From NCBI GenBank assembly GCA_021775475.1, contig JAJFHS010000053.1, positions 44,271 to 108,270 on the forward strand: 64,000 bases of DNA, given 5' to 3'. The translations under genes and the position numbers were made by a program. The DNA comes from Hyphomicrobiales bacterium (GTDB taxonomy: Bacteria > Pseudomonadota > Alphaproteobacteria > Rhizobiales > JAJFHR01). The notes beneath the pieces are model-generated. The model was not told where the DNA came from. It ran no database searches and saw nothing but the letters and a program-made list of their open reading frames with translations. Positions within the stretch are counted from its first letter, which is position 1. The number at the start of each line of letters is the position of its first letter. Below are positions 3,060 to 21,027 of the stretch, one piece after another.

Positions 3060-3070
3060 TAGTAGCTTCC

Positions 3071-4054: not shown

Positions 4055-4089
4055 AACCAATCAACACAATATGAAATTCAGGAATCTCA

Positions 4090-4875
4090 ATGGCTGACAT
4101 TTTTTCACTCGACAATCTTTTAACACTGGCAATGCTGGTCCTGCTACAGGCGGTTTTAGGGTTTGATAATCTGTTGTATATTGCCCTTGAATCGAAGAGC
4201 GTAGCCCCCGAAAGTCAGGCCCGCGTGCGCCGGTTGGGCATCATCATCGCCCTTGTCTTGCGTGTTGTTTTGCTGTTGGCCCTGACCCAGGCGGTACAAT
4301 ATTTCCAGGCACCGTTTTTCTCATTAAAACTACCCGGCATATTCGAAATCACTTTAAACTTTCACAGCTTGATCGTGCTCGCAGGCGGGGTATTTATCAT
4401 TTACGCCGCACTCAAGGAGATAATTCACATGTTGTCTGTCGACGATCTGGGAGTGGCGACTGATACATCAAAATTGCGCTCGGTAACCTCAGCGGTAACC
4501 TGGATAGTTGCCATGAACGTGGTGTTTTCCTTCGATTCAATTCTGTCAGCCATGGCCCTGACCGACAAGTTCTGGATCATGGCGTTTGCGGTGGTCATAT
4601 CAGGAATATTGATGTTGATGCTGATCGATAATGTGGCGCAATTTTTGACCAAAAACCGCATGTACGAAGTGCTCGGCCTGTTTATCCTGTTTATTGTCGG
4701 CATATTGCTGCTGTCCGATGGCGGCAAACTGGCGCAACTGTCCTTTTTCGACTACCCGATCGAACCGATGGCCAAATCAACATTTTATTTCGTCATCGCC
4801 GTTCTGGTCATCGTCGATGTCATTCAGGGCCGCTACCAGAAAAAACTCGACCGCCAGCGAAAACGCGGTGGTTGA
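4090..4875 (+). CDS. TerC family integral membrane protein
   Basis: 261-aa polytopic membrane protein with the N-terminal LQAVLGFDNLLYIAL motif typical of the TerC/YjbE family. Confidence 0.7.
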   Translation: MADIFSLDNLLTLAMLVLLQAVLGFDNLLYIALESKSVAPESQARVRRLGIIIALVLRVVLLLALTQAVQYFQAPFFSLKLPGIFEITLNFHSLIVLAGGVFIIYAALKEIIHMLSVDDLGVATDTSKLRSVTSAVTWIVAMNVVFSFDSILSAMALTDKFWIMAFAVVISGILMLMLIDNVAQFLTKNRMYEVLGLFILFIVGILLLSDGGKLAQLSFFDYPIEPMAKSTFYFVIAVLVIVDVIQGRYQKKLDRQRKRGG

Positions 4876-4934
4876 TTTGTAAAACAGTATGAAAACTCCT
4901 GGGGCTTATTCCTTTCAGTTACCCCACCACATGG

Positions 4935-5050
4935 CGTCATCCTCGGGCTTGACCCGAGGACCCATACCGTTGAGTTTTCTAAAACAAAGATACTGTCTTT
5001 GAGCCGTGAGTTTTGAGGAATAGATCCTCGGGTCAAGCCCGAGGATGACG
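4935..5050. mobile_element. MITE-like element, copy 1: 26-bp perfect terminal inverted repeats (CGTCATCCTCGGGCTTGACCCGAGGA), each arm itself a hairpin
   Basis: Arms lie at 4935-4960 and 5025-5050. A second copy at 44216-44343 has an interior about 80% identical in inverted orientation. This copy sits between the convergent 3' ends of terC and glyA. Confidence 0.75.
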
Positions 5051-5088
5051 AATTTGAGAGATATGAAACCAATTATATACGGATGCTT

Positions 5089-6366
5089 TTAGCCAGGAAG
5101 TCGCTGATATACAGGATATCTCTGACAAATCTTGATTATTCTGCTGGCAACTTCCTCAGCGACTACCTCAACTCGCCCGCTAGCTTCAGCCTCAATAAGA
5201 TCAGCAATCATGTTGCCCACATCGTTAAGGTCCTTCTCACCCAGCCCGCGTGTGGTAACAGCACCAACGCCCAGTCTCAAGCCAACCCATTCAGACGGTT
5301 TGACGTTGTCAAAAGGTATCGGGTTTTTGTTGGACGTTAGATGGCCTGCGGCAAGTGCGTCTTGAGCACGCTGGCCATTAATGCCGCTGGTGGACAGATC
5401 GAGCAGAACAATATGCGTATCGGTTCCATTACTGACAATCTTCACACCGCGCTGCATGAGTGTATCAGCCAGCCTGACCGCATTGGCTTTGAGCTTTTGG
5501 CCATAGAGTTTAAATTCCGGTTGCAACGCTTCACCCAGACACACAGCCTTGGCGGCAATAACCTGGCTGTGCAGACTGCCCTGCACGCCGGGAAAGACGG
5601 CTGATTGCAGTTTCTTTTCCCATGTCAGATTGTTGGAAAGAATTAACCCGCCGCGCGGACCACGCATGGTTTTGGTGGTGGTGCAGGTGACAATATCGGC
5701 ATGCGGCAGGGGAGAAGGATGAACGCCGGCTGCCACCAACCCGGCGAAATGAGCCATATCCACAAGGAACATCGCCCCCGCTTTATCAGCAATACTGCGC
5801 AAACGCTGAAAATCAATTTCACGCGGGTAAGCCGAACCGCCGGTAATCAGCAAAGCCGGTTTAAATTCCATCGCCTGACGTTCAACCGCGTCACAATCAA
5901 TCCTGCCGGTTGCCGCATCAACATTATAATGTGCAGCTTCAAACCAGCGCCCGGACAGATTAGGCGGTGCACCATGGCTCAAATGCCCGCCAGCCTGAAG
6001 ACCGAGGCTCAAAATACGATCCCCCGGCCTTAACAGGGCAAAAAACACCGCCTGATTGGCCTGCGTACCCGAATGCGGTTGCACATTGACATAGGCGCAA
6101 TCAAACAATTCTTTGGCCCGGTCAATGGCGGCCTGTTCGGCCACATCCATAAACTCACCGCCACCATGAAACCGGTTGCCGGGATAGCCCTCAAGCGTCT
6201 TGTTGGTGATCTGGTGACCCAGAGCATCGAGCACCGCACGGCTCACCATATTTTCCGAAGCAATCAATTCCAGTTGCGTTTCCTGACGATGAGCCTCGTC
6301 ATCCAGCGCCTTGGCAATAAGCGCATCAGTATGTTGCAAGGACGTAGTGAAAAAACTGTTGGCCAT
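5089..6366 (-). CDS. glyA: Serine hydroxymethyltransferase
   Basis: Full-length SHMT similarity (ELIASENMVS, VQPHSGTQAN, TTTTKTMRGPRGG with the PLP lysine). ATG at 6366 is preceded by GAAGGA. The upstream extension to 6429 is not SHMT-like. Confidence 0.95.
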   Translation of the reverse strand: MANSFFTTSLQHTDALIAKALDDEAHRQETQLELIASENMVSRAVLDALGHQITNKTLEGYPGNRFHGGGEFMDVAEQAAIDRAKELFDCAYVNVQPHSGTQANQAVFFALLRPGDRILSLGLQAGGHLSHGAPPNLSGRWFEAAHYNVDAATGRIDCDAVERQAMEFKPALLITGGSAYPREIDFQRLRSIADKAGAMFLVDMAHFAGLVAAGVHPSPLPHADIVTCTTTKTMRGPRGGLILSNNLTWEKKLQSAVFPGVQGSLHSQVIAAKAVCLGEALQPEFKLYGQKLKANAVRLADTLMQRGVKIVSNGTDTHIVLLDLSTSGINGQRAQDALAAGHLTSNKNPIPFDNVKPSEWVGLRLGVGAVTTRGLGEKDLNDVGNMIADLIEAEASGRVEVVAEEVASRIIKICQRYPVYQRLPG

Positions 6367-6463
6367 CGGTTTTCCTTCGCCTGAAAATATGTGATGAATG
6401 GCAGTCACGAAACTATCTGCCCCTAACACGTCAATAAAGCCACTTGCAACCGGGAAAATTTCA

Positions 6464-7246
6464 ATGCCGCGTTTTGCTGCAAACCTGACGATGATGTTTA
6501 ACGAAGTCGCGTTTCTCGACCGTTTTGCCGCAGCGGCAAGGGCAGGATTTAAAGGCGTCGAAATTCTGTTCCCCTATGATTTTCCATCGGATGTACTGGC
6601 AGAAAAGTTGCAGCGTTACGATCTTCAACAGGTGTTGTTTAACACGCCTGCGGGAAACTGGCAGGCTGGTGAGCGCGGGCTGGCCTGTCTTCCTGGTCGC
6701 GAAGCTGAATTTGAAGACAGTCTCGAGATTTTGTTGGCTTATGCTGATGTTCTGGACTGTAAACAGATACATATGCTGGCAGGCGTACCACCACCGGAGT
6801 GTTCGCCACATCAGGCAAAAGAAACTTATATCAATAATTTGCGCAAAGCTGCGGGTATTTGCCGCCGCCACGGCATCACGGTCTTGATTGAGCCAATAAA
6901 TCATGGCGACATGCCGGGATATTTTCTTCACCATCAGGCCCAGGCAATCGAATTGCTGCAACTGGCCGGAGAAGTAAATATTGCCTTGCAAATGGATATT
7001 TATCACTGTCAAATCACCGAAGGATGCCCGGCAAATCTCATTCGCGAAAATTTTTCCCATATTGGTCATTTTCAAATCGCCGGAGTGCCCGGACGCCACG
7101 AACCAGATACTGGTGTGATAGACTACCCGGCTCTCTTTGATTTAATCGATGGCCTCAATTACGGTGGCTGGATTGGTTGCGAATACCACCCGGCGGCACA
7201 GACTGAAGCAGGATTAGGGTGGGCTGCTCCCTACGCAATAGGATAG
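6464..7246 (+). CDS. Hydroxypyruvate isomerase / 2-oxo-tetronate isomerase family (xylose-isomerase-like TIM barrel)
   Basis: MPRFAANLTMMFNE is the classic Hyi N-terminus, and the 260-aa length fits. The start at 6464 is preferred over the ORF-track start at 6398. Confidence 0.8.
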   Translation: MPRFAANLTMMFNEVAFLDRFAAAARAGFKGVEILFPYDFPSDVLAEKLQRYDLQQVLFNTPAGNWQAGERGLACLPGREAEFEDSLEILLAYADVLDCKQIHMLAGVPPPECSPHQAKETYINNLRKAAGICRRHGITVLIEPINHGDMPGYFLHHQAQAIELLQLAGEVNIALQMDIYHCQITEGCPANLIRENFSHIGHFQIAGVPGRHEPDTGVIDYPALFDLIDGLNYGGWIGCEYHPAAQTEAGLGWAAPYAIG

Positions 7247-7250
7247 ATTT

Positions 7251-8228
7251 ATGAAAGTTGTGATTTTAGGCGGACACGGTTTTTTGGGCACCATGCTTGC
7301 CCAGCGATTGTTGCAAAAAAACTGTCTGATGGACAGAAATAACACCAGCCAGGCAATCGATGAACTGGTTCTGGTTGATCAAATGCCACCCCAAATATCC
7401 GTAGAAGGTGCCACCTCCCTGATTGGCGACATTACCGATCCCGGTTTTCTCAAAACCGTCATCGATGAAGATGTCACAAGTATTTTCCATCTCGCCGCCG
7501 TGGTCAGTGCCGCGGCTGAAGCTGATTTTGATTTGGGTATGCGGGTAAATCTTGAAGCGACCCGGAATGTTCTGGAATGTTGCCGCAACTTGCCCCGGCC
7601 ACCATGGCTGGTGTTTTCAAGTTCGCTTGCCGTATTTGGCAATGCCCCTGCGGTGGTTATGGACGACACCCCGGCCCTGCCCCTGTCTTCTTATGGCACC
7701 CAGAAAGTCATCGGCGAATATCTTAGCTGCGAATATACTCGCAAAGGTTTCGTTGACGCCAGATGCCTCCGCCTGCCCACCATCACCATCCGGCCTGGAA
7801 AGCCCAACAAGGCCGCTTCATCTTTCATCAGTTCCATTCTGCGCGAGCCGTTGCAAGGCCTTGAAGCCATCTGCCCGGTGACGCGCGATATGAACTTATG
7901 GGTACAATCGCCGCCAACGGTAATTGAAAACCTCATTCATGCCCATGACACACCAGCAAGCGCATGGGACGAAGGTCCGCGCATCCTCAATCTGCCCGGC
8001 CTCAGTGTCAGTGTTGACGAAATGGTCGCCGCCCTGAAACGCGCCGGTGGTGATACTTCTTTAATACGCTGGCAAACTGATAGCGAAATTGCCCGGTTGG
8101 TCGGCAGTTGGCCCGGTGCCATGAACACCGCGCGCGCTACCCAGATGGGATTTAAAGGCGATGACATTATCGATGATATAATCAGGGACTACCTTGATTT
8201 TTACGCCCAACAGACACAGCCAGCGTAA
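7251..8228 (+). CDS. NAD-dependent epimerase/dehydratase (extended SDR), possibly D-erythronate dehydrogenase-like
   Basis: It has GGHGFLG Rossmann and YGTQK (YxxxK) motifs and starts 4 nt after the hyi-like stop. The DenD-like assignment is only a context guess. Confidence 0.7.
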   Translation: MKVVILGGHGFLGTMLAQRLLQKNCLMDRNNTSQAIDELVLVDQMPPQISVEGATSLIGDITDPGFLKTVIDEDVTSIFHLAAVVSAAAEADFDLGMRVNLEATRNVLECCRNLPRPPWLVFSSSLAVFGNAPAVVMDDTPALPLSSYGTQKVIGEYLSCEYTRKGFVDARCLRLPTITIRPGKPNKAASSFISSILREPLQGLEAICPVTRDMNLWVQSPPTVIENLIHAHDTPASAWDEGPRILNLPGLSVSVDEMVAALKRAGGDTSLIRWQTDSEIARLVGSWPGAMNTARATQMGFKGDDIIDDIIRDYLDFYAQQTQPA

Positions 8229-8233
8229 ATTTT

Positions 8234-11200
8234 TTAAGCCATCTCCTCTATTTCACTTTCAACCCGTTTCTCAACACCGACAAAATCGATTTTTCCCGAG
8301 CCAAGCACAGGAACCTCGCCTACCCTCACCACAGCTGGTATCATCAGGTCCTGGCCACCGTTTGCCTTGGCAAAGCGTACAAAATCATCACGGGTCGCGC
8401 CTTCTGCATCGGTTAATAAAACCAGCCGTTCTCCCTTTCTGGCATCAACTACCGCCACCACTGCACACAGCTGGTTAGGCCAGACCTTACCAGCCATAAC
8501 TTCAACGACTGCCAGAGAAATCATCTCACCACCAATCTTGGCAAAGCGCTTGGCGCGACCGCGAATGGCAATAAAGCCGTGAGCATCAATGGTAACAATA
8601 TCGCCGGTATCATGCCAGCCATCTTCCAGACCTTCCACCACACCCGGATTTTCAGCCCGCAGATACCCGGCCATAACGTTTGGTCCGCGCACAAAAAGCC
8701 GCCCGCCTTCATCAATTCCCGGCACGGGTTCGAGGCGCGCTTCCATACCCGGCATGATTTTTCCAACCGTATCGGCTTTGCAATACATCGGCGTGTTGAT
8801 GGAGATAATCGGGGCGGTTTCTGTTACCCCGTAGCCTTCGAGAATACGCAATCCGAATTTTTCCATATAGGTTTTGCGTGTTGATGCCTTGACCGGTTCT
8901 GCCCCGGCAAAACAATAGCGGATGGAGCGAAAATCATACGGATGAGCGGTGCGGGCATAGCCACTCAAAAACGTGTCGGTACCAAATATGATGGTAGCGT
9001 TTGAGCCGTAGACCAGCTCTGGAATGATTCGGTAATGTAACGGCGAGGGATAGAAATATACCGGCACCCCGGCAATCAGCGGCAATATCGTTCCGGTAGT
9101 CAAACCAAACGAATGAAACAGCGGCAAAACGTTGAAAACCTTGTCGCCAGCGTGAAAATCAATGCGTGATGCCGCCTGAGCTGCATTTGACAGGATATTT
9201 CGGTGAGACAGCACCACACCTTTTGGAGCACCTTCAGAACCCGACGTAAACAGAATAACCGCTGCCTCATCGGCAGATTTACGCACACGCGGCCTGGTTT
9301 TACGTAAAAATCCAAACAATTTATCTATGGGGTTGATGGCCTGGCGAATGTCGTCCATCCAGACTATATCAATAAATTCGCCCACCTCATCAATGACACC
9401 GTCAAGCTTTGCCTGTTCAACAAAGGCGCGCGAGGTCAGTATTGTTTTGGTCTGGGTCGCCTTGCACGCCGACAGGATATTTGCAGCACCGGCTGAAAAA
9501 TTGATCATCGCCGGGGTTTTCCCTGCCGAAACAACCGCCAGCATGGTGACAATCGAACCATTGGCATTTGGCAACATAACGCCAAGCGTTGTTTGCTCCG
9601 CAAAAATCGTTGTGAATTTCTCAGCCAGAACACTGACCCCGGTGAGCAACCTGCCATAAGACAGCTTGCCGCTGATGGGATCTTCAACGCAGGTTTTTTT
9701 CATACCCCGTTCGCGCGCCGTTTTGATAATGCGTTGCAAAATGGTTTCATCAGTTGTGGTGGTGCGGAAAACCAGTTGCGACATGATCTGGTAGAGATCA
9801 GCCCCGGCAGCAGAACGTCGCGCAGCTCCTTTGAGATCATCGGGCACACTCAGACGTACCGGTTCCAGAATTGTGACTTTAACCTTGGGGAAAAGACGGC
9901 GGCGAACATGGGTCGAAGTCAGGCGCGAGAAATAACTTTTTTCCAAACCATCAATGCGGATCGGCACCACCATGGAGCCGGTTTTATCCGCCACCATGGC
10001 CGCACCATTATAGATTTTCATCAAACCGCCGGTAACAGTAATGCGCCCCTCAGGGAAAATCACCAGAGGTTTGCCGCTTTTAACTGACTTGATCAATGTG
10101 CGCGTCGCCATCGGTTTGGAAGGATCAAGTGCGAGAAAATTACACACTCTCAAAAACGGTCGCACCCACCAGGCTTTGGCAATCGTGTAATCAACCACAA
10201 ACACCGGATCTTCGTCTGTTAACGCCAGTGCCAGGGCCCCATCGAGAAAACTCACATGATTAAGTGCCAGGATAGGCGCTTTACCGGCCTTTTTGATGTT
10301 TTCAAGACCAACGATTTCAAGGCCATGAAAAGCCCGAAACAGAATGGAGACAAAATCACGAAACGGATTTGTCGGCAGATGACGCATCATCAGCCAGGCA
10401 GCGATAATGTTGAGAACACCAAGACCCGTCAGTATCTGAAAAACGGTAACGCCCTGCACCTGCAAAATCGCCACGATGCCACCACCTAAAGTCATGAATG
10501 CAGCAGAGACAACGTTAACTCCAGCAATCACCCGGGCGCGGCGGTTTTCTTCAGCCCAGGTCTGAATAGCGGTAAATGATGGCACCACCAAAAAGGCCCC
10601 GGCGATTGCCAAACCTGCCAGATCAACGCCAATGCGAAGGGTGTTGTCGCCAGCAAAAAATTGCGCAACCGTGGTCGCCGCAATCGTTGTTTCAACGGAT
10701 GAAATACTCCAAGCAAGATCAAGCCCGAACAGCGCCATCACCCCGGTGCCAACCGGTGTCGGCAACAGCACAACACGACCAGCTGACATCCACGCGGCAA
10801 CGGCTGAGCCAGCGCCCAAGGCAACAGCGAAAATCGCTAGATAACGCGTTACAATGATTTCGCTGCCACCAAGGACTTCCTTGACCATAGGTGGCAGAAT
10901 TGACAGAATAATGGCACCAATAAGCCAAAACCAAGACACCATCAGACCAGTTGTCCAGATACGTTTATCCTGACGCAACTCATCGACGATACGCCACGAT
11001 GAGCGAAAAATATTCACATCAATCTTTAAATCAGGCGCCGCACTGCCGGTCGCTGGAATATAACGGCTCACCCACCAGCAAGCGGTCGCCAGTGCCATCA
11101 TCAAGGGGCCGAAAACAATCACATTAACGCCGCCAATGGACGCAAGACCGCCCACAATCGTACCGCCAAGGATGGCAATAAATGTCGCCCCTTCAATCCA

Positions 11201-11626
11201 GGCATTAGCGCGGGCAAGTTCATGCTTTTGCAGGTGATCGGGCAAAATTCCGTACTTTATCGGCCCGAACAAGGCTGAGATGACCCCAAACAAAAACAGC
11301 GCCGCCATCAAAACCAGTACCGATGACAAAGCCAGACCGGCAACCGACACACCCGCAGCGGCGATTTCGGCAAGTTTGAGTTTTTCAGCCATCCGCGCCT
11401 TGTCAAACCGGTCAGCCAATTCACCACCAAGAGCTGAAAAAAACAAAAATGGAGCCATAAAAACAGCCCCGGCCAGAGTTATCAGCGCCGCCGATTGTGC
11501 CATGGAGAACTGGAACAGGATCAAGAAAACAAGCGTGTTTTTCAAAAAATTATCATTAAACGCAGACAGAAATTGTGTCCAGAACAAGGGGGCAAAACGC
11601 CGGGATGTCATCAGATTGGTGTTCAT
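8234..11626 (-). CDS. aas: Triple fusion: MFS lysophospholipid transporter (LplT) + PlsC-type acyltransferase + acyl-ACP synthetase (Aas)
   Basis: 1130 aa. The N-terminus is an MFS domain (FWTQFLSAFNDNFLKN). The middle has the HX4D motif (NHVSFLD). The C-terminus is AMP-binding (LFTSGSEGAPKGV). AAGGAAA precedes the ATG. Confidence 0.85.
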   Translation of the reverse strand: MNTNLMTSRRFAPLFWTQFLSAFNDNFLKNTLVFLILFQFSMAQSAALITLAGAVFMAPFLFFSALGGELADRFDKARMAEKLKLAEIAAAGVSVAGLALSSVLVLMAALFLFGVISALFGPIKYGILPDHLQKHELARANAWIEGATFIAILGGTIVGGLASIGGVNVIVFGPLMMALATACWWVSRYIPATGSAAPDLKIDVNIFRSSWRIVDELRQDKRIWTTGLMVSWFWLIGAIILSILPPMVKEVLGGSEIIVTRYLAIFAVALGAGSAVAAWMSAGRVVLLPTPVGTGVMALFGLDLAWSISSVETTIAATTVAQFFAGDNTLRIGVDLAGLAIAGAFLVVPSFTAIQTWAEENRRARVIAGVNVVSAAFMTLGGGIVAILQVQGVTVFQILTGLGVLNIIAAWLMMRHLPTNPFRDFVSILFRAFHGLEIVGLENIKKAGKAPILALNHVSFLDGALALALTDEDPVFVVDYTIAKAWWVRPFLRVCNFLALDPSKPMATRTLIKSVKSGKPLVIFPEGRITVTGGLMKIYNGAAMVADKTGSMVVPIRIDGLEKSYFSRLTSTHVRRRLFPKVKVTILEPVRLSVPDDLKGAARRSAAGADLYQIMSQLVFRTTTTDETILQRIIKTARERGMKKTCVEDPISGKLSYGRLLTGVSVLAEKFTTIFAEQTTLGVMLPNANGSIVTMLAVVSAGKTPAMINFSAGAANILSACKATQTKTILTSRAFVEQAKLDGVIDEVGEFIDIVWMDDIRQAINPIDKLFGFLRKTRPRVRKSADEAAVILFTSGSEGAPKGVVLSHRNILSNAAQAASRIDFHAGDKVFNVLPLFHSFGLTTGTILPLIAGVPVYFYPSPLHYRIIPELVYGSNATIIFGTDTFLSGYARTAHPYDFRSIRYCFAGAEPVKASTRKTYMEKFGLRILEGYGVTETAPIISINTPMYCKADTVGKIMPGMEARLEPVPGIDEGGRLFVRGPNVMAGYLRAENPGVVEGLEDGWHDTGDIVTIDAHGFIAIRGRAKRFAKIGGEMISLAVVEVMAGKVWPNQLCAVVAVVDARKGERLVLLTDAEGATRDDFVRFAKANGGQDLMIPAVVRVGEVPVLGSGKIDFVGVEKRVESEIEEMA

Positions 11627-11710
11627 GAATTTTCCTTTTCATCTGTGGCAGGGCCGGAAACTTCGCAAATATGATCGATTTTCCGTTGATCACTGGGCAT
11701 TGGCTGTGTA

Positions 11711-11779
11711 TGAACAGTGTTCATGGTTTGAATAATACTCATTTGTGAACAGTGTTCAAGTCATCATGAACACTGTTCA
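11711..11779. promoter_or_regulatory. Three 13-bp palindromes TGAACA-N-TGTTCA (11711-11723, 11746-11758, 11767-11779) in the aas/tetR divergent region: candidate TetR operators
   Basis: All three are perfect dyads read directly in the sequence, located between the divergent starts at 11626 (-) and 11801 (+). Confidence 0.7.
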
Positions 11780-11800
11780 CAAAAATCGGGGTTATGGTTA

Positions 11801-12421
11801 ATGATTTCTAAACGCGAAGCCAGACGCGAGACATTGCGCATAGCGCTGCTGGAGGCCGCAAAAGCGCGTGTTGCCGAAAGCGGGCTTGCCCGATTGCGCG
11901 CACGCGACATCGCCAAAGATGCCGGTTGCGCCCTTGGTGCGTTATATAATGTTTACAAAAGTCTTGATGACCTCATCCTTCACATCAACTCCGCAACCCT
12001 GGCCCAATTGAATACGAAACTGAACCACGCTGCCGCCAATGCAGACACACCGCAGGAAAAACTGGTAGCCCTTGCGCGCCAGTATATGACGTTTGCCATC
12101 GACAACAACTACCTGTGGTCAGCATTGTTCGACCACACGATGCCCGAAAATGCCCCCCTGCCTCAATGGCATCTTGATGAACAGGCAATTTTATTCGGCC
12201 ATGTTGTTGATCCTCTGGCCGCTCTAAAACCTGATCTGGATGCTGCCGGGCTGCACACGGCAGCACGCACGTTGTTTGCAGCTGTTCATGGTATTGTCTC
12301 CATCAGCTTGCGCGAAGGCTCTACAACCATCCCGCGCGAAACCCTCGATGCCCAGTTGACAGAATTCATAATTACCCAGGTAAACGGGATGAAATACGCC
12401 TGTGGCGAACACCAAATCTGA
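11801..12421 (+). CDS. TetR/AcrR family transcriptional regulator
   Basis: 206 aa with an N-terminal HTH region (ARDIAKDAGCALGALYNVYKS) and a helical C-terminal ligand domain. Confidence 0.85.
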   Translation: MISKREARRETLRIALLEAAKARVAESGLARLRARDIAKDAGCALGALYNVYKSLDDLILHINSATLAQLNTKLNHAAANADTPQEKLVALARQYMTFAIDNNYLWSALFDHTMPENAPLPQWHLDEQAILFGHVVDPLAALKPDLDAAGLHTAARTLFAAVHGIVSISLREGSTTIPRETLDAQLTEFIITQVNGMKYACGEHQI

Positions 12422-12828: not shown

Positions 12829-15288
12829 ATGAACGCTCACACAACGTCATTTCAGATCGAAGGCATGTCTTGCGCATCGTGCGTGGGCCGGGTGGAAAAA
12901 GCCCTGTCTGCCGTTCCCGGCGTCACGGATGCATCGGTAAATCTGGCAACAGAAACAGCCCAGGTGAGTTTTGACGACAGCGTTAATACGCAAGTTTTAA
13001 CCACCACCCTTAGCGCTGCAGGCTACCCGGCTGCCACCGATGAAGTCACGCTGGAAATAGAAGGCATGACATGTGCGTCGTGCGTCGGACGGGTTGAAAA
13101 AGCCCTGAATGCGGGAGAAGGCGTATTAAAAGCGTCGGTAAATCTGGCAACAGAAACCGCAACCGTGGCTTTTGCCACCGGCGCTACAACACCGGCAGAC
13201 ATCGCCGCGATTGCAACCAAGGCGGGATATGCGGCAAAACCCAAAACCACCAGTGGTACGCCAACCGATAAAGAGGACCGCAAGGCTGCCGAAATCACTC
13301 GTCTTGGACGCATGACACTGTTGGCGGCTGTGCTGGCTCTGCCGGTTTTTGTAATGGAAATGGGCGGCCACGTCTATGCCGGTTTTGGTGAATTTATTGA
13401 ACAATATATTGGCCTTCAAAACAGCCGTCTCATTCAATTTGTGCTGACCACAATCGTGTTGTTCGGGCCCGGTTTGCGGTTCTACACCAAAGGCTATCCA
13501 GCCCTTTTCAAAGGTGCGCCCGACATGAACTCTCTTGTCGCTCTGGGCACCTCATCCGCCTATATTTTCTCGCTTGTGTCCACATTTACACCCTGGGTAT
13601 TACCCGAAGGCACGGTCAATGTGTATTACGAGGCCGCCGCCGTCATTATTGTATTGATATTGCTGGGGCGCTTCCTCGAGGCTCGCGCCAAGGGCCGCAC
13701 CGGTAACGCCATTCGCAAACTTGTTGGCCTGCAGGCCAAAACCGCCCGCGTTGAGCGTAACGGCGAGGTGGCTGAACTGGCCATTGAAGAAATTGTCCTT
13801 GGCGATATTATCCATGTACGCCCCGGTGAAAAAATTTCCGTCGACGGCACGGTTTTAACCGGCTCATCTTACGTCGATGAAAGCATGATTACCGGCGAAC
13901 CCGTGCCGGTTGAAAAAACCAAGGACACAGAAGTTGTCGGCGGCACGGTCAATGGCACCGGCGCCCTCACCTTCACGGCCACCAAAGTCGGTGGCGACAC
14001 CATGCTGGCCCAGATCATTCAGATGGTTGAACAGGCGCAAGGGGCCAAACTGCCCATCCAGGGCATTGTCGACAGGATCACTGCGGTTTTTGTTCCTATT
14101 GTCATGGGTCTGGCCACACTCACCGTTCTGACGTGGTTTTTGATTGGGCCTGAGCCCGCTCTTACCTACGCGCTGATTGCCGGGGTTGCCGTTTTGATTA
14201 TTGCCTGTCCCTGTGCCATGGGTCTGGCGACGCCGACTTCAATTATGGTCGGCACTGGCCGTGCGGCTGAAATGGGTGTGCTGTTTCGTAAAGGTGATGC
14301 CTTGCAATCGTTGCAGGAAGCAAAGATTGTTGCCCTCGACAAGACCGGCACCCTGACGCTTGGCCGCCCCGAACTGACTGATTTGAGCGTAGCCGATGGT
14401 TTTGACAAAGACGAAGTCCTGCGACTGGTTGCTTCTGTTGAAGTAACGTCAGAACATCCGATTGCCGAAGCCATTGTGCGTGCCGCACAAGTCAAGGAAA
14501 TGACCCTGTCAAAGATTGAGGATTTCTCGTCAATTACCGGCTTTGGTGTTCAGGCCAGCGTCGATGGCAAGATCATACTCATTGGTGCAGACCGCTTTAT
14601 GAAGCGCGAAGACGTATCTTTGGGAACACTGCTGGCTGAGGGTGACGCCCTGGGTAAAAAAGGCAAAACACCTTTGTATGCCGCCATTGACGGCAAGATT
14701 GCCGCCGTTATCGCGGTGACCGACCCGATAAAGGACAGCACACCTGAAGCCATCGCAGCGTTGCATAAGCTGGGCCTCAAGGTTGCCATGATAACCGGCG
14801 ACAATCAGGGCACGGCTGAGGCAATCGCCGCAGAACTGAACATTGATCATGTGGTCGCCGAGGTTCTGCCCGAAGGCAAGGTGGAAGCGTTAGAAGCCTT
14901 GCGTGCAGGTGGAACCAAACTGGCCTTTGTTGGTGATGGTATCAATGACGCCCCCGCGCTGGCTGTGGCTGACGTCGGTATTGCCATTGGCACCGGCACC
15001 GATGTGGCGATTGAAGCCGCTGACGTGGTGTTGATATCCGGCGATCTCAAAGGTGTGGTCAATGCGTTTCAGATCAGCCAGCGCACCATGTCAAACATTC
15101 ACCAGAACCTGTTCTGGGCTTTCAGCTACAATACACTGCTGATCCCCGTTGCCGCCGGTGTACTTTATCCGGTAACCGGGCTACTGCTGTCGCCGGTGCT
15201 GGCTGCCGGTGCCATGGCGTTATCAAGCGTCTTTGTTCTAACCAACGCATTGCGTTTACGCTGGGTAAAACCGGCCATGCAGGAGTAA
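12829..15288 (+). CDS. copA: Cu(I)-translocating P1B-type ATPase with two N-terminal HMA domains
   Basis: Motifs present: GMSCASC, GMTCASC, CPC ([12 protein letters not shown]), DKTGTLT and GDGINDAP. Confidence 0.95.
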
Positions 15289-15293
15289 TTGAA

Positions 15294-15677
15294 ATGAATA
15301 TAGGCGACGTTGCCAGCCGCTCGGGCCTGCCCGCAAAAACCATTCGCTACTATGAAGACATCGGCTTTGTAAAACCCTTGCGCGACACCAATGGCTACCG
15401 GGTGTTTCAGGAAAAAGAACTGCACAAACTGACGTTCTTAAACCGGGCGCGCGCACTTGGTTTTACCATTGAGGACTGCCGCGCACTCCTGGCACTCTAC
15501 GAAGACGAAACCCGCTCAAGTGCGGACGTAAAACGCATTGCCAACGAGCATCTGCAACAAATCGACGCCAAAATCACCAACCTCAAGGCCATGCGCAACA
15601 CTCTGTCACACCTGATAGAAGAATGCGCCGGCGACCACCGCCCCGATTGCCCGATTTTGGAAGATCTGGGCAAATAG
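15294..15677 (+). CDS. cueR: Cu(I)-responsive MerR-family regulator
   Basis: MerR HTH N-terminus plus a C-terminal C-x7-C metal loop (ECAGDHRPDCP) with CueR spacing. It starts 5 nt after copA. Confidence 0.9.
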   Translation: MNIGDVASRSGLPAKTIRYYEDIGFVKPLRDTNGYRVFQEKELHKLTFLNRARALGFTIEDCRALLALYEDETRSSADVKRIANEHLQQIDAKITNLKAMRNTLSHLIEECAGDHRPDCPILEDLGK

Positions 15678-15710
15678 GGGTAGTCTGCGGCTTAGAGCGA
15701 AATGCTACCG
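15677..15710. repeat. Left copy of a 34-bp imperfect inverted repeat pair bracketing the 15927-17285 ORF
   Basis: GGGGTAGTCTGCGGCTTAGAGCGAAATGCTACCG matches the reverse complement of 17513-17547 at about 29 of 34 positions. It begins within the cueR stop codon. Confidence 0.7.
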
Positions 15711-15926
15711 TAAGGTCAGCAATGCGGACAAAGCTGCCGTTTGGTGGAAATGGCCAAATCTGGCTCAGACCCCGAAACCTGCCGTTCGGGCTACTGGCAA
15801 CATGCGCCAATTGCGGTCATCGACCTCAGGTGAGGCGTCAATCCACTTTGAACCCAACGTGCGCAGTGCTAAAGGTAGCACCGATGTCCAAGAAATCCAA
15901 ACTCCTGCCATCTAAAGAGATTAAAC

Positions 15927-17285
15927 ATGAACGATTTGAACGAGCAGAAAGACGAGACAGTCTTCAATGAGACAACCTTCGAAGGAAAAATCTCCGCAGG
16001 TTCTGTGGAACAAGACATCACTTTTGTTTGCCGCGCAGGCGAAGACTGTCGCCTGGTATTCGATCCGCTGAGCGTTTCGGGCGAAATGTACATTGCGCTG
16101 CACAAATCCATGGGTCAGCCTGGTGGCCACGGCGAATGGGTAACTCTGACGGGAGAGAGCAGTAATGATATCAAGCTTTCATCTGACTACATGGAGATTG
16201 GCGGCCTGAACGCTGGCAGCTCAGGTTACGAAGTTCGACTGAAAACGGGCGAAGCATCGGTCACACTACCCCGGAAAGCCGATCCCAAAGATGCTGCTGT
16301 TGGTTTGAAACTCTTGCTACGTGGCTTCAAAAGTTTTCGTCCGAACCCGGTACAGTCGCAGCTTGGCCAAGTCGTGGTCCAGGGCGACAACGAGGTCGCC
16401 TCTGCTGACACCGTGAGTGGCGCGATCTGCGTCCAGGGAACTGATCCAAATCTCGATGATAGCTGGTATCGTGACGCCGAGGCACTCGCTAAATTCGTTT
16501 GGAAAGGACTACAATTTGGCCATGGGGGCCGCCTCCAAATCCCGTTGCTGCAGTTCTATCGTCCGGACGAAGTGATCGCCACGTTCTACCGTGGGTCTGG
16601 CCGTCCTAAGCATTTGCCCATGATTCATTTTCTCGACCAGTCAGAGTTCATCGCCTCGCTGGTGAAACGCTTTGAAAGCGAAGATACATTTCCAGATGAC
16701 GTATGGCAGGCCGTTGGATGGCTCAATAACGACTCGTCTATTAACGAAGTGCGCTACCTGACGCTTATGACCGCCATCGAAACGATCCTTCACAGTCTGG
16801 TACCAGAAGCGCCGTCAACGCTGATCCCCAAGGTCGAATTCAAGCCGATCCGGGATGCTTTGCTTGAGTCTCTGACGCCATTTGATCTTGGCGAGAAGCA
16901 AAAAAAGGTTCTCCAGAGCAATATCCGACAGATTAATCGGTCACCTTTGTCTCAAAAATTGCAGGCAGTGATCGAGAAGTACGGCTTACCCTCCAGTGTG
17001 TTCGACCAGGACTTAGTGCGTCGGCTCAATAAACAGCGCATCTCGATCGTCCACCAAGGGCGGTCGCTGAACAACGATGAACTCTGGGAATGCTTGCTCT
17101 ACGCTCACGAAATGATCGCGCTAATCGTTTTCTCTGAACTGCGCTACAATGGCCGTTATGAAAGCTATGCCCAAGGGCATGAGCAACGAACAATGCCACC
17201 AGCTGATCAAACTGAGCGGGAAGTCAAAGTTGAGGAAGTCGCCCCATCTTCGGAGAGACCATCGGAGCGCTCTCAATGTCCGTAA
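15927..17285 (+). CDS. Hypothetical protein; the C-terminal helical region carries a HEPN-like Rx4H motif (RISIVH), possibly an ApeA-like defence/abortive-infection nuclease
   Basis: 452-aa ORF isolated by ~250-nt and ~280-nt non-coding flanks. The motif context LNKQRISIVHQG is followed by helical segments. I recognise no other domain, so the function is speculative. Confidence 0.45.
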   Translation: MNDLNEQKDETVFNETTFEGKISAGSVEQDITFVCRAGEDCRLVFDPLSVSGEMYIALHKSMGQPGGHGEWVTLTGESSNDIKLSSDYMEIGGLNAGSSGYEVRLKTGEASVTLPRKADPKDAAVGLKLLLRGFKSFRPNPVQSQLGQVVVQGDNEVASADTVSGAICVQGTDPNLDDSWYRDAEALAKFVWKGLQFGHGGRLQIPLLQFYRPDEVIATFYRGSGRPKHLPMIHFLDQSEFIASLVKRFESEDTFPDDVWQAVGWLNNDSSINEVRYLTLMTAIETILHSLVPEAPSTLIPKVEFKPIRDALLESLTPFDLGEKQKKVLQSNIRQINRSPLSQKLQAVIEKYGLPSSVFDQDLVRRLNKQRISIVHQGRSLNNDELWECLLYAHEMIALIVFSELRYNGRYESYAQGHEQRTMPPADQTEREVKVEEVAPSSERPSERSQCP

Positions 17286-17465
17286 TCGCGCATCTTTCCG
17301 CGTAGCCCTCGCCCGATGAATGTCTGTTCCCAATATCCCGTCCCTGAGTTACCGCGCTGCAACATCCAGTAGAGAGGGCTCAGAGCTGCCATTTACCATG
17401 TCCGTCAAACGAGCGTTTTGCGGTCACAAACAAAACTGTCCGACAATGTAATACACGCCAGAAAA

Positions 17466-17501
17466 ACGGACAAATTGATTAACGGACAACTTGACGGACA
17501 A
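17466..17501 (+). repeat. Three direct ACGGACAA repeats (17466, 17482, 17494), plus a CCGACAA variant at 17440 and GCGGACAA at 15723
   Basis: Read directly in the sequence. They are clustered just inside the right inverted repeat. Confidence 0.6.
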
Positions 17502-17512
17502 GAAATATGCTT

Positions 17513-17547
17513 GGGGTAGTATTTCGCCCTGAGCCGCAAACCACCCC
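17513..17547. repeat. Right copy of the 34-bp inverted repeat pair
   Basis: GGGGTAGTATTTCGCCCTGAGCCGCAAACCACCCC is the inverted partner of 15677-15710. It lies just 3' of the minus-strand gene ending at 17567. Confidence 0.7.
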
Positions 17548-17566
17548 AAAATAGGCTCCATATAAC

Positions 17567-18667
17567 TCAGTTGGCAATCTCGCCGATAGACACAGTGGTG
17601 CGCAATTCCGGACTGTTGGGGCCAAGCAGGACGGGTTGTTTTATATCGGCCAGAACTGCCACATCATAAAGCTCCGAGACCACACCATCCATTGTCAGTG
17701 AATGAATGACATCGCCGCTTTTCAAATCGACAATATAGAGCCCGCACCGTGGCTCCATCTTGCGCGTTGTCAATGCATCATCCAGAGCCAGACCGGAAAA
17801 TGTCTTGTTGTCGCGTGGCTTGGACAGGCCCATAACGGCAAAGCCATCAACAAAACTTAAGCCCCGAAGATAGCCTGGACAAAAGCATAACCCTTCAAAT
17901 TTTCCGCTTGTTAAATCCACATAGCCAAATTCACCCGTGCCGGAATTATGCAGCCACAGCCGGTCATCGTGCCAGCGTGGCGAATGCGGCATGCTCAACC
18001 CTTCACAAACGATGTCATTGGTGCGCACGTCGATGACAATGCCACCGTTAAGACGTTGATCGCGCCAACCGTCAAACGTATCACTGTTTGAGACCGCTGT
18101 AACATAACCCGGCTTGCCATCCACCAGAGCCAGCCCGTTGAGATGGCAACGATCTTCTGCCGCCAGTCGAGAAATAAAATCAGGCCGCCACAGCGGGATG
18201 AAGCTATGGGTAACGCTTAACGTGCCCAGACAGTTAAACAGTGTATTGACGAAAGTTGGTTGACCACTGTCAGGAACGGCTATGTCGTGAATATCCAGAT
18301 CCCCGGTAAAATACGAAACTTGAGGTACATAAACCGCATCATAGCCTTCTTTGGTCTTCTGATTTTCCGGTAACGCGTTTTCATAGCGGTGAACCTGCAC
18401 ATCGCTTGTTACCCATAGACCGTTGTCAGAAGCAGCCATGCCCAGACAGCGGCCTACATTGCGGTTAAAAACCCATAATTTACCATCCGGTTTGGATCCG
18501 ATGAAAAACAGCTTGCCAACCTGATAGGTGGTAAAAGCCAGGGAAATATTACGCTGTGCCAGCCATTGGGTAAGCCCGCGCGACGTATCCAGAGAAAACA
18601 CCGGATCCCCCTGATCGCCAGTGGCTGCATCATTGGTTTCGATGATTGGTTCGGGCGCATTTTCCAT
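17567..18667 (-). CDS. Conserved hypothetical beta-propeller-like protein (possibly TIGR03032/DUF4915 family)
   Basis: 366-aa ORF with repeated beta-strand-rich segments. The N-terminal LAFTTYQVGKLFFIG segment matches my memory of the TIGR03032 family, but the family call is unverified. Confidence 0.5.
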   Translation of the reverse strand: MENAPEPIIETNDAATGDQGDPVFSLDTSRGLTQWLAQRNISLAFTTYQVGKLFFIGSKPDGKLWVFNRNVGRCLGMAASDNGLWVTSDVQVHRYENALPENQKTKEGYDAVYVPQVSYFTGDLDIHDIAVPDSGQPTFVNTLFNCLGTLSVTHSFIPLWRPDFISRLAAEDRCHLNGLALVDGKPGYVTAVSNSDTFDGWRDQRLNGGIVIDVRTNDIVCEGLSMPHSPRWHDDRLWLHNSGTGEFGYVDLTSGKFEGLCFCPGYLRGLSFVDGFAVMGLSKPRDNKTFSGLALDDALTTRKMEPRCGLYIVDLKSGDVIHSLTMDGVVSELYDVAVLADIKQPVLLGPNSPELRTTVSIGEIAN

Positions 18668-18716
18668 GAATAGAGGTCTCCTTGATCATTACATTTTGAG
18701 CTTGAGACCCACTGAG

Positions 18717-18744
18717 GTGACAAGGCAGCAGTGATGCTTATAAT
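18717..18744 (+). promoter_or_regulatory. Sigma70-like promoter candidate (GTGACA-N16-TATAAT) implying a ~230-nt leader for the EF-G-like gene
   Basis: Perfect TATAAT at 18739-18744 and a near-consensus -35 at 18717-18722. No ORF lies between it and 18979. Confidence 0.4.
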
Positions 18745-18978
18745 GCATCTCGTTCTATCTATTCAAGTTTACTTCTGCATTTCCGTCACAAGAGTTTTGC
18801 CCCCATGATTATGCCGGGGCGTAAAATTCAACTCGGAACCCTTTTTGTTTAAATAAAGCATCAAATAATTATCATGGGCCTTGCCTTCTGGCCTGAGCCG
18901 TGGAACCATACAATTCTATCGACAGCCCCGGATTGAGGGGACGGTGACCTCTCATCTATAAACCGTTGGGAGGAAGTT

Positions 18979-21027
18979 ATGGGTAACGAAGGCGCTAGAC
19001 CAAGCGGCCCTCGGTGCATCGCACTAATTGGGCCATATTTAAGCGGAAAAACCACACTTTTAGAATCAATTTTAGCTCGTACAGGCGCTGTTAATCGCCA
19101 GGGCAAGGTCTCTGATGGCAATACCATTGGGGACGCATCGCCCGAAGCGCGCGCCCACGGCATGAGCGTCGAGCTCAATGTAGCCTCGATAGATTACCAC
19201 GGTGAACAATACACATTTATTGATTGTCCCGGTTCAATTGAATTCCTGCAGGAGCAAATTCCCGCCCTGCCCGCCGTTGACGCAGCCATTGTGGTGTGCG
19301 AGCCCGATGACAAGAAAATACCGGCATTACAACTGATTTTAAAACAGCTTGATGAGTTAGGAATTCCGCGCATTTTATTCCTCAACAAAATAGATAAAAC
19401 CGAGATACGAGTGCGCGACATCCTCGGCACCCTGCAACCGGCAAGTGAAAAACCGCTGGTGTTGCGCCAGATACCAATCTGGGAAGACAATGTTGTTACC
19501 GGCTGTGTTGATCTCGCGCTGGAGCGCGCTTTTATCTATCGTAAACATGCCCAAAGTGAAGTGATTGACCTGCCCGACGGCGTTTTGGACCGTAAGGGAG
19601 AAGCGCGATATTCCATGCTCGAACAACTGGCGGACTATGATGATGAGTTGATGGAAGTGCTGCTCGAAGACATTGAGCCAGCCCAGGATCAGGTATTTGG
19701 TGATCTCGCCCAGGAGCTGCGCAACGGACAGATTTGCCCGGTCCTGTTGGGTTCAGCTGAAAACGGCAATGGTATTCGCCGCCTGCTCAAGGCCATTCGC
19801 CATGAAGTGCCAACGGTGGAGGAGACCGCCGAACGCTTGAGCCTGAGTAATAGTGAGTGTGTGGCACAGATTCTCAAAACCTATCACACCACCCATGGTG
19901 GCAAACTATCCCTGGTGCGGGTTTTAACCGGTGAGTTGAAAGATGGCACGGTTCTCTATGACAGCGGTGGCAATAATGAGCGCATTTCCGGCGTTTTTAC
20001 TCTGCTGGGCCAAGAACCTTCCAAGGTATCGCGTGCTGTCGCTGGAGATACGGTGGCTTTAGGGCGTATGGAGAGTTTTCAAACCGGTGAAACCCTAACC
20101 AGCATCAAGTGTGAATGTGAACAAGTTGCACCACTTGAAAGCCTGACGCCTGTCTATGGTTTGGCCATCAGTGCCGTGGAGCGCAATGATGAAGTAAAAC
20201 TCACCGGTGCCATTGCTAAAATTATCGAGGAAGACCCGTCCATCCAGCTGGTCCACAGCCCCGACACCAATGAAATGGTAATCTGGGGTCAGGGCGAGAT
20301 GCACCTGCGCGTAACGCTGGAGCGTCTGGAAGGAAAATACGGTATCGCTGCAAAAACACGTCGGCGTAAAATTCCTTATAAAGAAACCATTCGCAAATCC
20401 ATCACAATTCGGGGTCGCCACAAAAAACAAAGCGGCGGACACGGGCAATTTGGTGATGTGGAAGTGGAGATCAAACCACTGCCACGCGGCTCCGGCTTTG
20501 ATTTCAGTCAGGCGATTACCGGGGGCGTCGTGCCAAAGCAATATATTCCCGCCGTTGAAAACGGCATCAAGGAATATCTGGCGCAAGGGCCGCTGGGTTT
20601 CCCGGTTGTTGATCTCTCCGCCAAGCTGATCGATGGCTCCTACCATGCGGTAGATTCGTCCGAACAGGCATTTAAGACCGCGGGCAGAATAGCCATGGCC
20701 GAAGGACTGCCAAAATGTTCTCCGGTATTACTGGAGCCAGTCCTGTCAGTCTCGTTTAATGTTCCCAATGATGCAACGGCGAAAATAAACGCAATTATTT
20801 CCAGCCGTCGCGGCCAGATTTTAGGCTTCGATGCCAGACCCGGATGGCCGGGATGGGATGTGGTCAATGCACATTTACCGGAAACCGAAATCCAGAACAT
20901 AATTGTCGAGGTGCGCTCAGCCACCGCCGGCGTCGGCACATTTACCTATGAGTTCGATCATTTATCCGAGCTGACCGGAAAACTTGCCGAACAGGTTTTG
21001 TCGGAAAGCAAAGCCGAGGCGGCCTGA
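18979..21027 (+). CDS. Elongation factor G paralog (five-domain translational GTPase) lacking the catalytic His
   Basis: G1 is GPYLSGKTT, G3 is DCPGSIEF (canonical DTPGHVDF) and G4 is NKID. EF-G domain II-V similarity runs through the C-terminus. GGGAGGAAG RBS. Confidence 0.85.
   Translation: MGNEGARPSGPRCIALIGPYLSGKTTLLESILARTGAVNRQGKVSDGNTIGDASPEARAHGMSVELNVASIDYHGEQYTFIDCPGSIEFLQEQIPALPAVDAAIVVCEPDDKKIPALQLILKQLDELGIPRILFLNKIDKTEIRVRDILGTLQPASEKPLVLRQIPIWEDNVVTGCVDLALERAFIYRKHAQSEVIDLPDGVLDRKGEARYSMLEQLADYDDELMEVLLEDIEPAQDQVFGDLAQELRNGQICPVLLGSAENGNGIRRLLKAIRHEVPTVEETAERLSLSNSECVAQILKTYHTTHGGKLSLVRVLTGELKDGTVLYDSGGNNERISGVFTLLGQEPSKVSRAVAGDTVALGRMESFQTGETLTSIKCECEQVAPLESLTPVYGLAISAVERNDEVKLTGAIAKIIEEDPSIQLVHSPDTNEMVIWGQGEMHLRVTLERLEGKYGIAAKTRRRKIPYKETIRKSITIRGRHKKQSGGHGQFGDVEVEIKPLPRGSGFDFSQAITGGVVPKQYIPAVENGIKEYLAQGPLGFPVVDLSAKLIDGSYHAVDSSEQAFKTAGRIAMAEGLPKCSPVLLEPVLSVSFNVPNDATAKINAIISSRRGQILGFDARPGWPGWDVVNAHLPETEIQNIIVEVRSATAGVGTFTYEFDHLSELTGKLAEQVLSESKAEAA

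Follow-up and report, generated by a model that had tools for sequence, protein, structure and literature searches.

Non-autonomous derivatives of Tn3-family transposons are known in several forms. Tn3-derived miniature elements with inverted repeats (TIMEs) and their derivatives are 262-3,892 bp long, have terminal inverted repeats (IRs) of 38-40 bp and produce duplications of 5-6 bp in A/T-rich targets, and their transposition has been demonstrated; IS101 carries a res site, and the same authors speculate that TIMEs may carry one too (PMC4133298). The mobile insertion cassettes (MICs) of Xanthomonas hold passenger genes between the IRs of TnXax1 and are flanked by 5-bp duplications (PMC4337579). 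Tn3-family elements of the alphaproteobacterial genus Paracoccus have IRs of 38-39 bp and A/T-rich duplications of 5-6 bp (PMC3281130). The colinear order cargo, res, tnpR, tnpA is the layout of the Tn21/Tn501 type, res consists of three subsites of which subsite III adjoins tnpR, and members of the Tn3 family are documented to diversify by exchanging the cargo side at res (PMC7157771). Described here is a 1,872 bp segment at positions 15677-17548 of a 64,000 bp stretch of DNA from a Hyphomicrobiales bacterium (GenBank assembly GCA_021775475.1, contig JAJFHS010000053.1, positions 44,271 to 108,270; this whole stretch is called the window below). The segment is taken, with high confidence, to be a non-autonomous Tn3-family derivative of the MIC/TIME kind, and it carries one gene, whose product very likely contains an Apea-like HEPN domain. 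The reading as a whole, a non-autonomous Tn3 cassette with an ApeA-like HEPN defence cargo, is given a probability of about 0.85.

On the cargo side, ApeA was reportedly described by Gao and co-workers in 2020 as a single-protein HEPN abortive-infection system. Characterised ApeA is mainly α-helical and has three domains (N, Mid and HEPN_ApeA), the last of which alone spans residues 335-583 in Ec2ApeA; it assembles into decamers or dodecamers, cleaves the anticodon loop of tRNA, is activated by a small ligand and brings about abortive infection as a single protein (bioRxiv 10.64898/2026.01.26.701840). An architecture in which a mostly β-strand N-terminal domain of ~300 aa (ApeA-NTD1) is joined to HEPN(Apea) was described by Anantharaman et al. 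2013 (PMC3710099).

The boundaries of the segment were defined with blastn by an empty site in a relative. A homologue search with the DUF4915 protein encoded to the right of the segment gave, as the contig of the closest homologue (92% identical), a metagenome contig of 2,864 bp (JGI 3300005753, Ga0077776_1004890; locus L010). It is about 90% identical to the window over 2.7 kb and holds the DUF4915 gene, a MerR gene of 127 aa and the beginning of copA. In L010 the cueR and DUF4915 genes converge with their ends 12 bp apart, and the spacer contains neither repeat nor any cassette DNA. The empty site reads GGGCAAATAGGGTC, with AAATA present once; the junction sequence is GGGCAAATAGGGTCTATATAAC, and in wider context …GATCTGGGCAAATAGGGTCTATATAACTCAGTTGGC…. 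L010 aligned to window positions 14932-15679 at 90.1% and 17549-19500 at 89.8%. The two alignments share eight L010 bases; the overlap comprises AAATA and two G's, the latter coming from the element on the left side and from native DNA on the right. Because the alignments overlap on AAATA, the insert is bounded at 15677 and 17548 and flanked by AAATA as a direct duplication, with the left copy at 15672-15676 and the right copy at 17549-17553. An extra A at 17548, between the right-hand repeat and the duplication, is accounted for either as the element's own outermost base or as a C-to-A change within a duplication of 6 bp. The segment is an actual insertion and not ancestral DNA. Neither its G+C content nor its skew differs from that of the flanks, so that it does not form a compositional island.

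The left repeat begins with a G (15677) that also completes the cueR stop codon TAG (15675-15677), to which the target contributes the TA and the element the G. Since this G restores the stop codon, CueR is unchanged. The element entered the 12-bp spacer between cueR and the DUF4915 gene through transposition of the Tn3 type into an A/T-rich pentamer, which duplicated AAATA and regenerated the stop codon.

Typical terminal IRs of the Tn3 family start with GGGG, end with TAAG and are about 38 bp long. The left repeat (IR-L, GGGGTAGTCTGCGGCTTAGAGCGAAATGCTACCGTAAG) occupies 15677-15714 on the plus strand and the right repeat (IR-R, GGGGTGGTTTGCGGCTCAGGGCGAAATACTACCCCAAG) 17510-17547 on the minus strand; they read GGGG…GTAAG and GGGG…CCAAG, respectively. 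The arms 15677-15709 (+) and 17515-17547 (-) are identical at 28 of 33 positions, and the full 38-bp arms at 31 of 38. IR-L also agrees at 21 of 38 ungapped positions with what we take to be the IR of Tn3 itself. A degenerate pattern covering both IRs had these two matches in the window, no others, and no match in 100 shuffles; a third copy was not present in the 64 kb even when up to 11 mismatches were allowed. The 23-nt core of the IR had a single match among 185,579 representative genomes, in a Rhizobiaceae metagenome-assembled genome (MAG; contig CBDFNP010000010.1, locus L006), and no match in the metagenome collection. L006 contains the full 33-mer GGGGTAGTTTGCGGCTGAGGGCGAAATACTACC at 772-804. 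To the terminal IR of the L006 transposon, IR-L is 86% identical over 36 nt and IR-R 94% over 34 nt. By their sequence, the repeats are identified as Tn3-family terminal IRs. Just outside the 38-bp repeat, IR-R (window 17548) and the IR of L006 (L006:771) both have a T before GGGG when read on the strand of the IR, and IR-L does not; this shared base may be the true outermost base of one end, or a coincidence.

Inward from the IR, L006 carries a fatty-acid hydroxylase gene, an ArsR-like regulator, a 160-bp spacer, a serine resolvase gene (tnpR; Pfam Resolvase, 1.2e-46) and a Tn3-type transposase gene (tnpA; DUF4158, 4.7e-46; DDE_Tnp_Tn3, 1.3e-102), in the order IR, cargo, res, tnpR, tnpA. Its tnpA is split into an N-terminal open reading frame (ORF) at 2766-4727 and a C-terminal ORF at 5521-6642 by an inserted segment (L006:4741-5713), whose ORFs look by eye like an IS630-like transposase. 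Another resolvase gene (6577-7152) is convergent and overlaps tnpA at its end, and a right-hand IR of L006 was not found within three mismatches. With a split tnpA, no right-hand IR and an overlapping resolvase gene, the L006 transposon is therefore itself decayed.

Between the ORF and IR-R, five TGTCCG/CGGACA half-sites and one degenerate half-site lie at 17399-17501 (+). The five occur within about 100 bp, compared with an expectation of 0.07 per 150 bp, and form the sole such cluster in the window. The half-site consensus of the γδ/Tn3 resolvases is TGTCYNNTA. The region is 72% identical over 104 nt (E 1e-9) to the stretch directly upstream of tnpR in L006, where the spacer holds the same kind of TGTCCG cluster. 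The half-sites form two inverted pairs, one over 28 bp (17399-17426) with a degenerate right half and one over 36 bp (17437-17472), and a tandem pair (17483-17488 and 17495-17500). Such a layout fits the three-subsite plan of res, with a tentative assignment of subsites I-III, and the region is regarded as a relic res site. The homology between the window and L006 leads directly up to the inner end of IR-R, where L006 has the start of tnpR. In architecture the element therefore corresponds to the L006 transposon, with tnpR and tnpA missing and another cargo in place. Homologues of tnpA and tnpR were not found anywhere in the 64 kb by tblastn with the L006 TnpA and TnpR proteins.

These results bear on a sequence-only reading of the same DNA, which had placed an inserted segment of ~1.87 kb past the copper operon and named an empty site in relatives as one check. 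The comparison with the ~90%-identical L010, which lacks the repeats and all DNA between them, and the 5-bp target duplication agree with that proposal. The A-rich flanks it had noted are the left AAATA and, on the right, A followed by AAATA, and the start of the left repeat within the cueR stop codon and the lack of a transposase were seen correctly. Its imperfect inverted repeats are real (28/33); their length is 38 bp (31/38) and not the 34 bp it had given. It had recognised neither the Tn3-family character of these ends nor the relic res beside IR-R.

The cassette retains the cis-acting parts of a transposon, namely two 38-bp terminal IRs and a three-part res for a serine resolvase, and has lost tnpR and tnpA, IR-R now standing at the expected start of tnpR. 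Two routes to this state may be envisaged. A mini-element may have been mobilised in trans by a cognate TnpA, or a full transposon may have inserted and lost tnpR-tnpA afterwards. Blastn of the plasmid collection with either end of the element gave no match.

In its IR type, target duplication, empty site in a relative, absence of a transposase gene and res, the segment agrees with the MIC/TIME kind throughout. Like the TnXax1-derived MICs (PMC4337579), it has a passenger between Tn3-family IRs, 5-bp duplications, no transposase and a presumed mobilisation in trans. The IRs of those MICs are 92 bp long and start with GAGGG, whereas those of the window cassette are 38 bp long and start with GGGG; the MICs carry effectors of type III secretion in Xanthomonas, whereas the window cassette carries a HEPN defence-type gene in an alphaproteobacterial host and has kept res. 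With the TIMEs and IS101 (PMC4133298) it shares the status of a non-autonomous Tn3 derivative, the range of IR lengths (38-40 bp), A/T-rich targets, 5-6-bp duplications and, in the case of IS101, a res site. The 262-bp TIMEs have no gene and TIME-RES has a resolvase gene with res, whereas the window cassette, known here from sequence alone, combines res without a resolvase and an unrelated 452-aa cargo gene. With the Tn21/Tn501-type transposon of L006 it has in common the IR sequence family, the sequence and position of res and a cargo on the res-distal side; it differs in lacking tnpR and tnpA and in its HEPN cargo, in place of the fatty-acid hydroxylase and ArsR-like regulator of L006.

The only long ORF between the arms (15927-17285, +) encodes 452 aa, comprising a β-rich N-terminal part, a helical ApeA-like HEPN domain (aa ~238-406) and a tail. 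It is preceded by a non-coding leader of 212 bp (15715-15926, +), which has no DNA similarity to the loci of the homologues and no sigma-70-like site on the plus strand. Pfam HEPN_Apea (PF18739) matched aa 278-406 (16758-17144, +) over 131 of 136 profile positions; its score of 27.7 bits exceeds the cut-off of 24.4 (E 4.2e-6), and it is the sole Pfam match of the protein at E<=1. In the N-terminal half, no Pfam match was obtained at E<=1 for the window protein or at E<=0.01 for 27 relatives. A homologue search found 30 proteins, of which 27 were aligned (alignment A2); the closest (P0002) is 78% identical, and 23 of the 27 matched HEPN_Apea individually. The Rx4H catalytic motif, R371-ISIV-H376 (KQRISIVHQG; 17037-17054, +), is near-invariant in the alignment, R371 and H376 each being conserved in at least 90% of the sequences, and the helix DEVRYLTLMTAIET is likewise near-invariant. 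A profile search of 1.84 billion representatives gave 549 clusters, counted at 50% identity, with E<=1e-3, of which 155 have E<=1e-30. A length of 400-460 aa and a match from end to end are found in nearly all of them, and the proteins therefore form a coherent two-domain family.

The C-terminal tail of the window protein (aa 423-452, 17195-17285, PPADQTEREVKVEEVAPSSERPSERSQCP) extends 29 codons beyond the stop point of the homologues, which are 421-424 aa long and end near …GHEQRT(M/L)x. It is not conserved, has a predicted local distance difference test score (pLDDT) below 50 and looks like the result of the loss of an ancestral stop codon.

In an AlphaFold2 model built with the alignment (pLDDT 82, predicted template-modelling score 0.78), the N-terminal domain (aa ~16-235) is β-rich, the C-terminal domain (aa ~238-404) is helical and the tail is disordered. 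Foldseek gave no significant match for the whole model in the Protein Data Bank (PDB) and BFVD or for the C-terminal domain in the PDB (best E 0.39). The top 50 PDB matches of the C-terminal domain are enriched for HEPN proteins, among them Csm6, HepT toxins, Las1 and an archaeal HEPN protein, none of them individually significant. These matches agree with a diverged HEPN fold of the C-terminal domain; they are not proof. A resemblance of part of the N-terminal domain to Hcp or tail-tube-like proteins (probability up to 0.95, E>0.1) is weak and was not relied on. Searches of PDB-chain sequences with the single sequence and with the profile gave nothing better than E 0.1. In PADLOC-DB only domain-level 'Cas13-ApeA' models matched (E 0.0056), which also matched 19 of 27 relatives, and no other model did.

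The protein resembles ApeA in being the product of a single gene, in its C-terminal Apea-type HEPN domain with Rx4H, in an N-terminal region of unknown homology and in its solitary position on mobile DNA. It is unlike ApeA in its length of 452 aa, about 130 aa shorter than characterised ApeA, in its β-rich N-terminal 235 aa, and in having no sequence match to any solved structure, being known here from its sequence and a model. In view of the shorter, β-rich N-terminal half, the restriction of PADLOC matches to the domain level and the absence of an N-terminal Pfam match, it is therefore assigned to the Apea-like HEPN family and not to ApeA proper. It shares with the ApeA-NTD1 + HEPN(Apea) architecture (PMC3710099) an N-terminal domain that consists mostly of β-strands and is fused to a HEPN domain of the Apea type; since the N-terminal half has no Pfam match in the protein or in its 27 relatives, equivalence with ApeA-NTD1 is only putative. 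The single 452-aa ORF and the Rx4H motif in the manner of HEPN RNases, both pointed out in the sequence-only reading, are upheld by the ORF map, the near-invariant R371-x4-H376 and the PF18739 score above the gathering threshold. Of the ApeA-type size and layout it had suggested, the ApeA-like HEPN domain stands (27.7 vs 24.4) and the size and layout do not, the protein being ~130 aa shorter with a β-rich N-terminal part; the check it had proposed with Pfam and PADLOC likewise gave HEPN_Apea above the cut-off and, for the ApeA system, domain-level 'Cas13-ApeA' matches in place of a system profile.

The homologues are solitary genes in unrelated mobile or chromosomal settings and have no constant neighbour. 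That of Pseudooceanicola is chromosomal, between cyd genes and a DUF2256 gene; that of Ruegeria has a resolvase and an integrase fragment next to it on its contig; and those of Agrobacterium, Ensifer and Thalassospira are plasmid-borne, the last with an NYN nuclease gene ~3 kb downstream. DNA similarity between the window and the homologue loci L001-L005, L007-L009 and L015 is limited to the coding region 15960-17195, and neither IR nor res is present beside the homologues at these loci; the Tn3 packaging is therefore specific to the lineage of the window. In the metagenome contigs L003 (6997-9275), L004 and L005 the homologue directly follows a small ParA gene and an 87-aa ribbon-helix-helix (RHH) gene, and ParB_N, large helicase, DUF2958 and Toprim genes surround it in what looks like the backbone of an integrative and conjugative element or a plasmid. 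The RHH gene was considered as an antitoxin and rejected, since it follows the small ParA and is read as a partition protein. In a 67-kb metagenome contig (Ga0209273_10000333, locus L009), a 60%-identical homologue lies in a compact defence island (3995-11942), with AbiEi/AbiEii upstream and DUF6119, a RES-domain gene and a CBASS-type oligonucleotide cyclase downstream. No homologue of the ORF was found by tblastn in a phage collection of 50,697 records.

The cargo is interpreted as a probable phage-defence RNase, and an anti-phage function as such is considered about an even chance. By analogy with ApeA, the HEPN domains would dimerise into an RNase site held off by the N-terminal part, a signal derived from the infection would switch this site on, and the activated RNase would cut tRNA or other RNA and thereby abort the phage infection.

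Among other explanations, the one that fares best is that a complete Tn3-family transposon inserted, lost tnpR-tnpA by deletion and left the cargo ORF as a decaying, unexpressed passenger without current function. The divergence of the two IRs (31/38), the non-conserved 29-aa read-through tail compared with the 421-424-aa homologues, the lack of a detected promoter and the lack of a transposase nearby would all suit such a dead relic. The ORF, however, is intact over its full length, has all residues that are invariant in the family including Rx4H and is modelled with a confident fold; its G+C content, the same as that of the flanks, suggests a long stay at the site in which the reading frame did not decay; and the IRs and the duplication are still intact. 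A functionless relic is accordingly held to be unlikely, and the defence cassette is preferred.

It is more doubtful still that the HEPN gene serves the transposon as a toxin for addiction or stabilisation, comparable to the toxin-antitoxin (TA) pairs beside res subsite I in many Tn3-family transposons. This explanation is kept in view because Tn3-family TA modules adjoin res; the end of the ORF is 113 bp short of the res-like site, on its tnpR-distal side, where TA modules of the family are located, and the known TA cargos of Tn3 include a HEPN/MNT pair (PMC7157771), and HEPN proteins are RNase toxins (PMC3710099). No conserved partner ORF of the size of an antitoxin, however, and no plausible small ORF of any such kind was found inside the element. 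The homologues moreover stand alone, in contexts other than Tn3 and without a constant neighbour, one of them is embedded in an AbiE/CBASS island, and a two-domain protein of 420-450 aa contrasts with the minimal HepT of ~130 aa. Such a role of the gene is improbable, and the reading as a defence cargo is retained.

Finally, the repeats had alternatively been proposed in the sequence-only reading to be copies of a repetitive extragenic palindromic (REP)-like or terminator-like 3' element after two converging genes, with ancestral DNA between them, a view in keeping with the position of each repeat just past a gene end in the same relative orientation and with the hairpin potential of IR-R (z -4.1 against shuffles) and the L006 copy (z -2.9), but virtually untenable because neither repeat nor the intervening DNA is present at the empty site in L010, IR-L folds no better than shuffles (z 0.1), no terminator-like site was found at either repeat and no Rfam match at E<=1 in 15000-18000, and the 34-mer expected to be dispersed occurs as two copies in 64 kb, its core once in 185,579 genomes and nowhere in the metagenome collection. 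In L006, furthermore, the same sequence forms the end of a Tn3-family transposon as its terminal IR, and the repeats of the window lie after converging genes because the target was the 12-bp convergent spacer. The empty site and the copy number rule this alternative out.

Several points weigh against the preferred explanation of a Tn3 cassette with a defence-type cargo. On the side of the vehicle, one extra A (17548) separates IR-R from the AAATA duplication, and the putative res subsite I has a central dinucleotide other than the usual TA/AT. The lack of a visible cognate transposase bears on present-day mobility, and a single copy of the cassette and a single related transposon were found, with no second insertion site that would show repeated movement. 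On the side of the cargo, the fold searches of the protein gave no significant match at all, PADLOC gave domain-level 'Cas13-ApeA' models only, and the failure to recognise a promoter upstream of the ORF bears on expression. The defence role draws on domain homology and one neighbour in a defence island, not on a statistic, and the cassette's own locus in the window is ordinary housekeeping DNA.

The left flank of the insertion is formed by cueR (15294-15677, +), a MerR-family copper regulator of 127 aa (Pfam MerR/MerR-DNA-bind), the length also of its L010 orthologue; it is preceded by a CopZ-like gene and the CopA ATPase. On the right, the DUF4915/TIGR03032 gene (17567-18667, -; Pfam and NCBIfam) is intact after the insertion, is 92% identical to its L010 orthologue and ends 19 nt from IR-R. 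The nearest named relatives of the flanking genes in the homologue search belong to the Hyphomicrobiales. In two more distant relatives (NCBI MAGs GCA_021775805.1 and GCA_021775835.1, loci L011 and L013) the DUF4915/TIGR03032 gene is not beside cueR; it follows a type I secretion set (OEP, ABC, HlyD-like) and precedes a giant gene of >1,800 aa. As this arrangement differs, the adjacency of cueR and the DUF4915 gene is lineage-specific. Elsewhere in the window, a 1,130-aa fusion of a major facilitator superfamily (MFS) transporter, an acyltransferase and an AMP-binding enzyme (8234-11626, -) presumably resembles the LplT-Aas-type lysophospholipid recycling proteins. Beside the DUF4915 gene, a 682-aa GTPase resembling elongation factor G (EF-G) (18979-21027, +) has all five EF-G domains, has no ribosomal operon near it and is probably an EF-G paralogue.

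Vehicle and cargo are each of known kinds; their combination is new, and no new principle is involved. Transposase-less cassettes derived from Tn3 are already known for virulence effectors and plasmid modules, and a HEPN defence-type cargo extends this repertoire. With bounds exact to the base, an empty site, an intact duplication, Tn3 ends and a leftover res, the locus is an unusually clean natural case of the transfer of a single defence-type gene. To our knowledge, none of the ~420-450-aa proteins with a β-rich N-terminal part and an Apea-like HEPN domain has been characterised experimentally. A further step, to which we give rather less than even odds, is that this family constitutes a distinct single-protein abortive-infection system, whose N-terminal trigger would differ from the deoxydinucleotides of canonical ApeA, and that the locus is a minimal Tn3 cassette open to mobilisation in trans. 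If so, the element would be an IR-gene-res-IR 'defence MIC' that hops between replicons without enzymes of its own. The HEPN cargo of this Tn3 derivative also suggests that scans for Tn3-type IR pairs might expose further orphan defence genes outside defence islands, and a mid-sized, uncharacterised ApeA-like family with another N-terminal domain is a reasonable candidate for a new activation signal in HEPN-mediated abortive infection.

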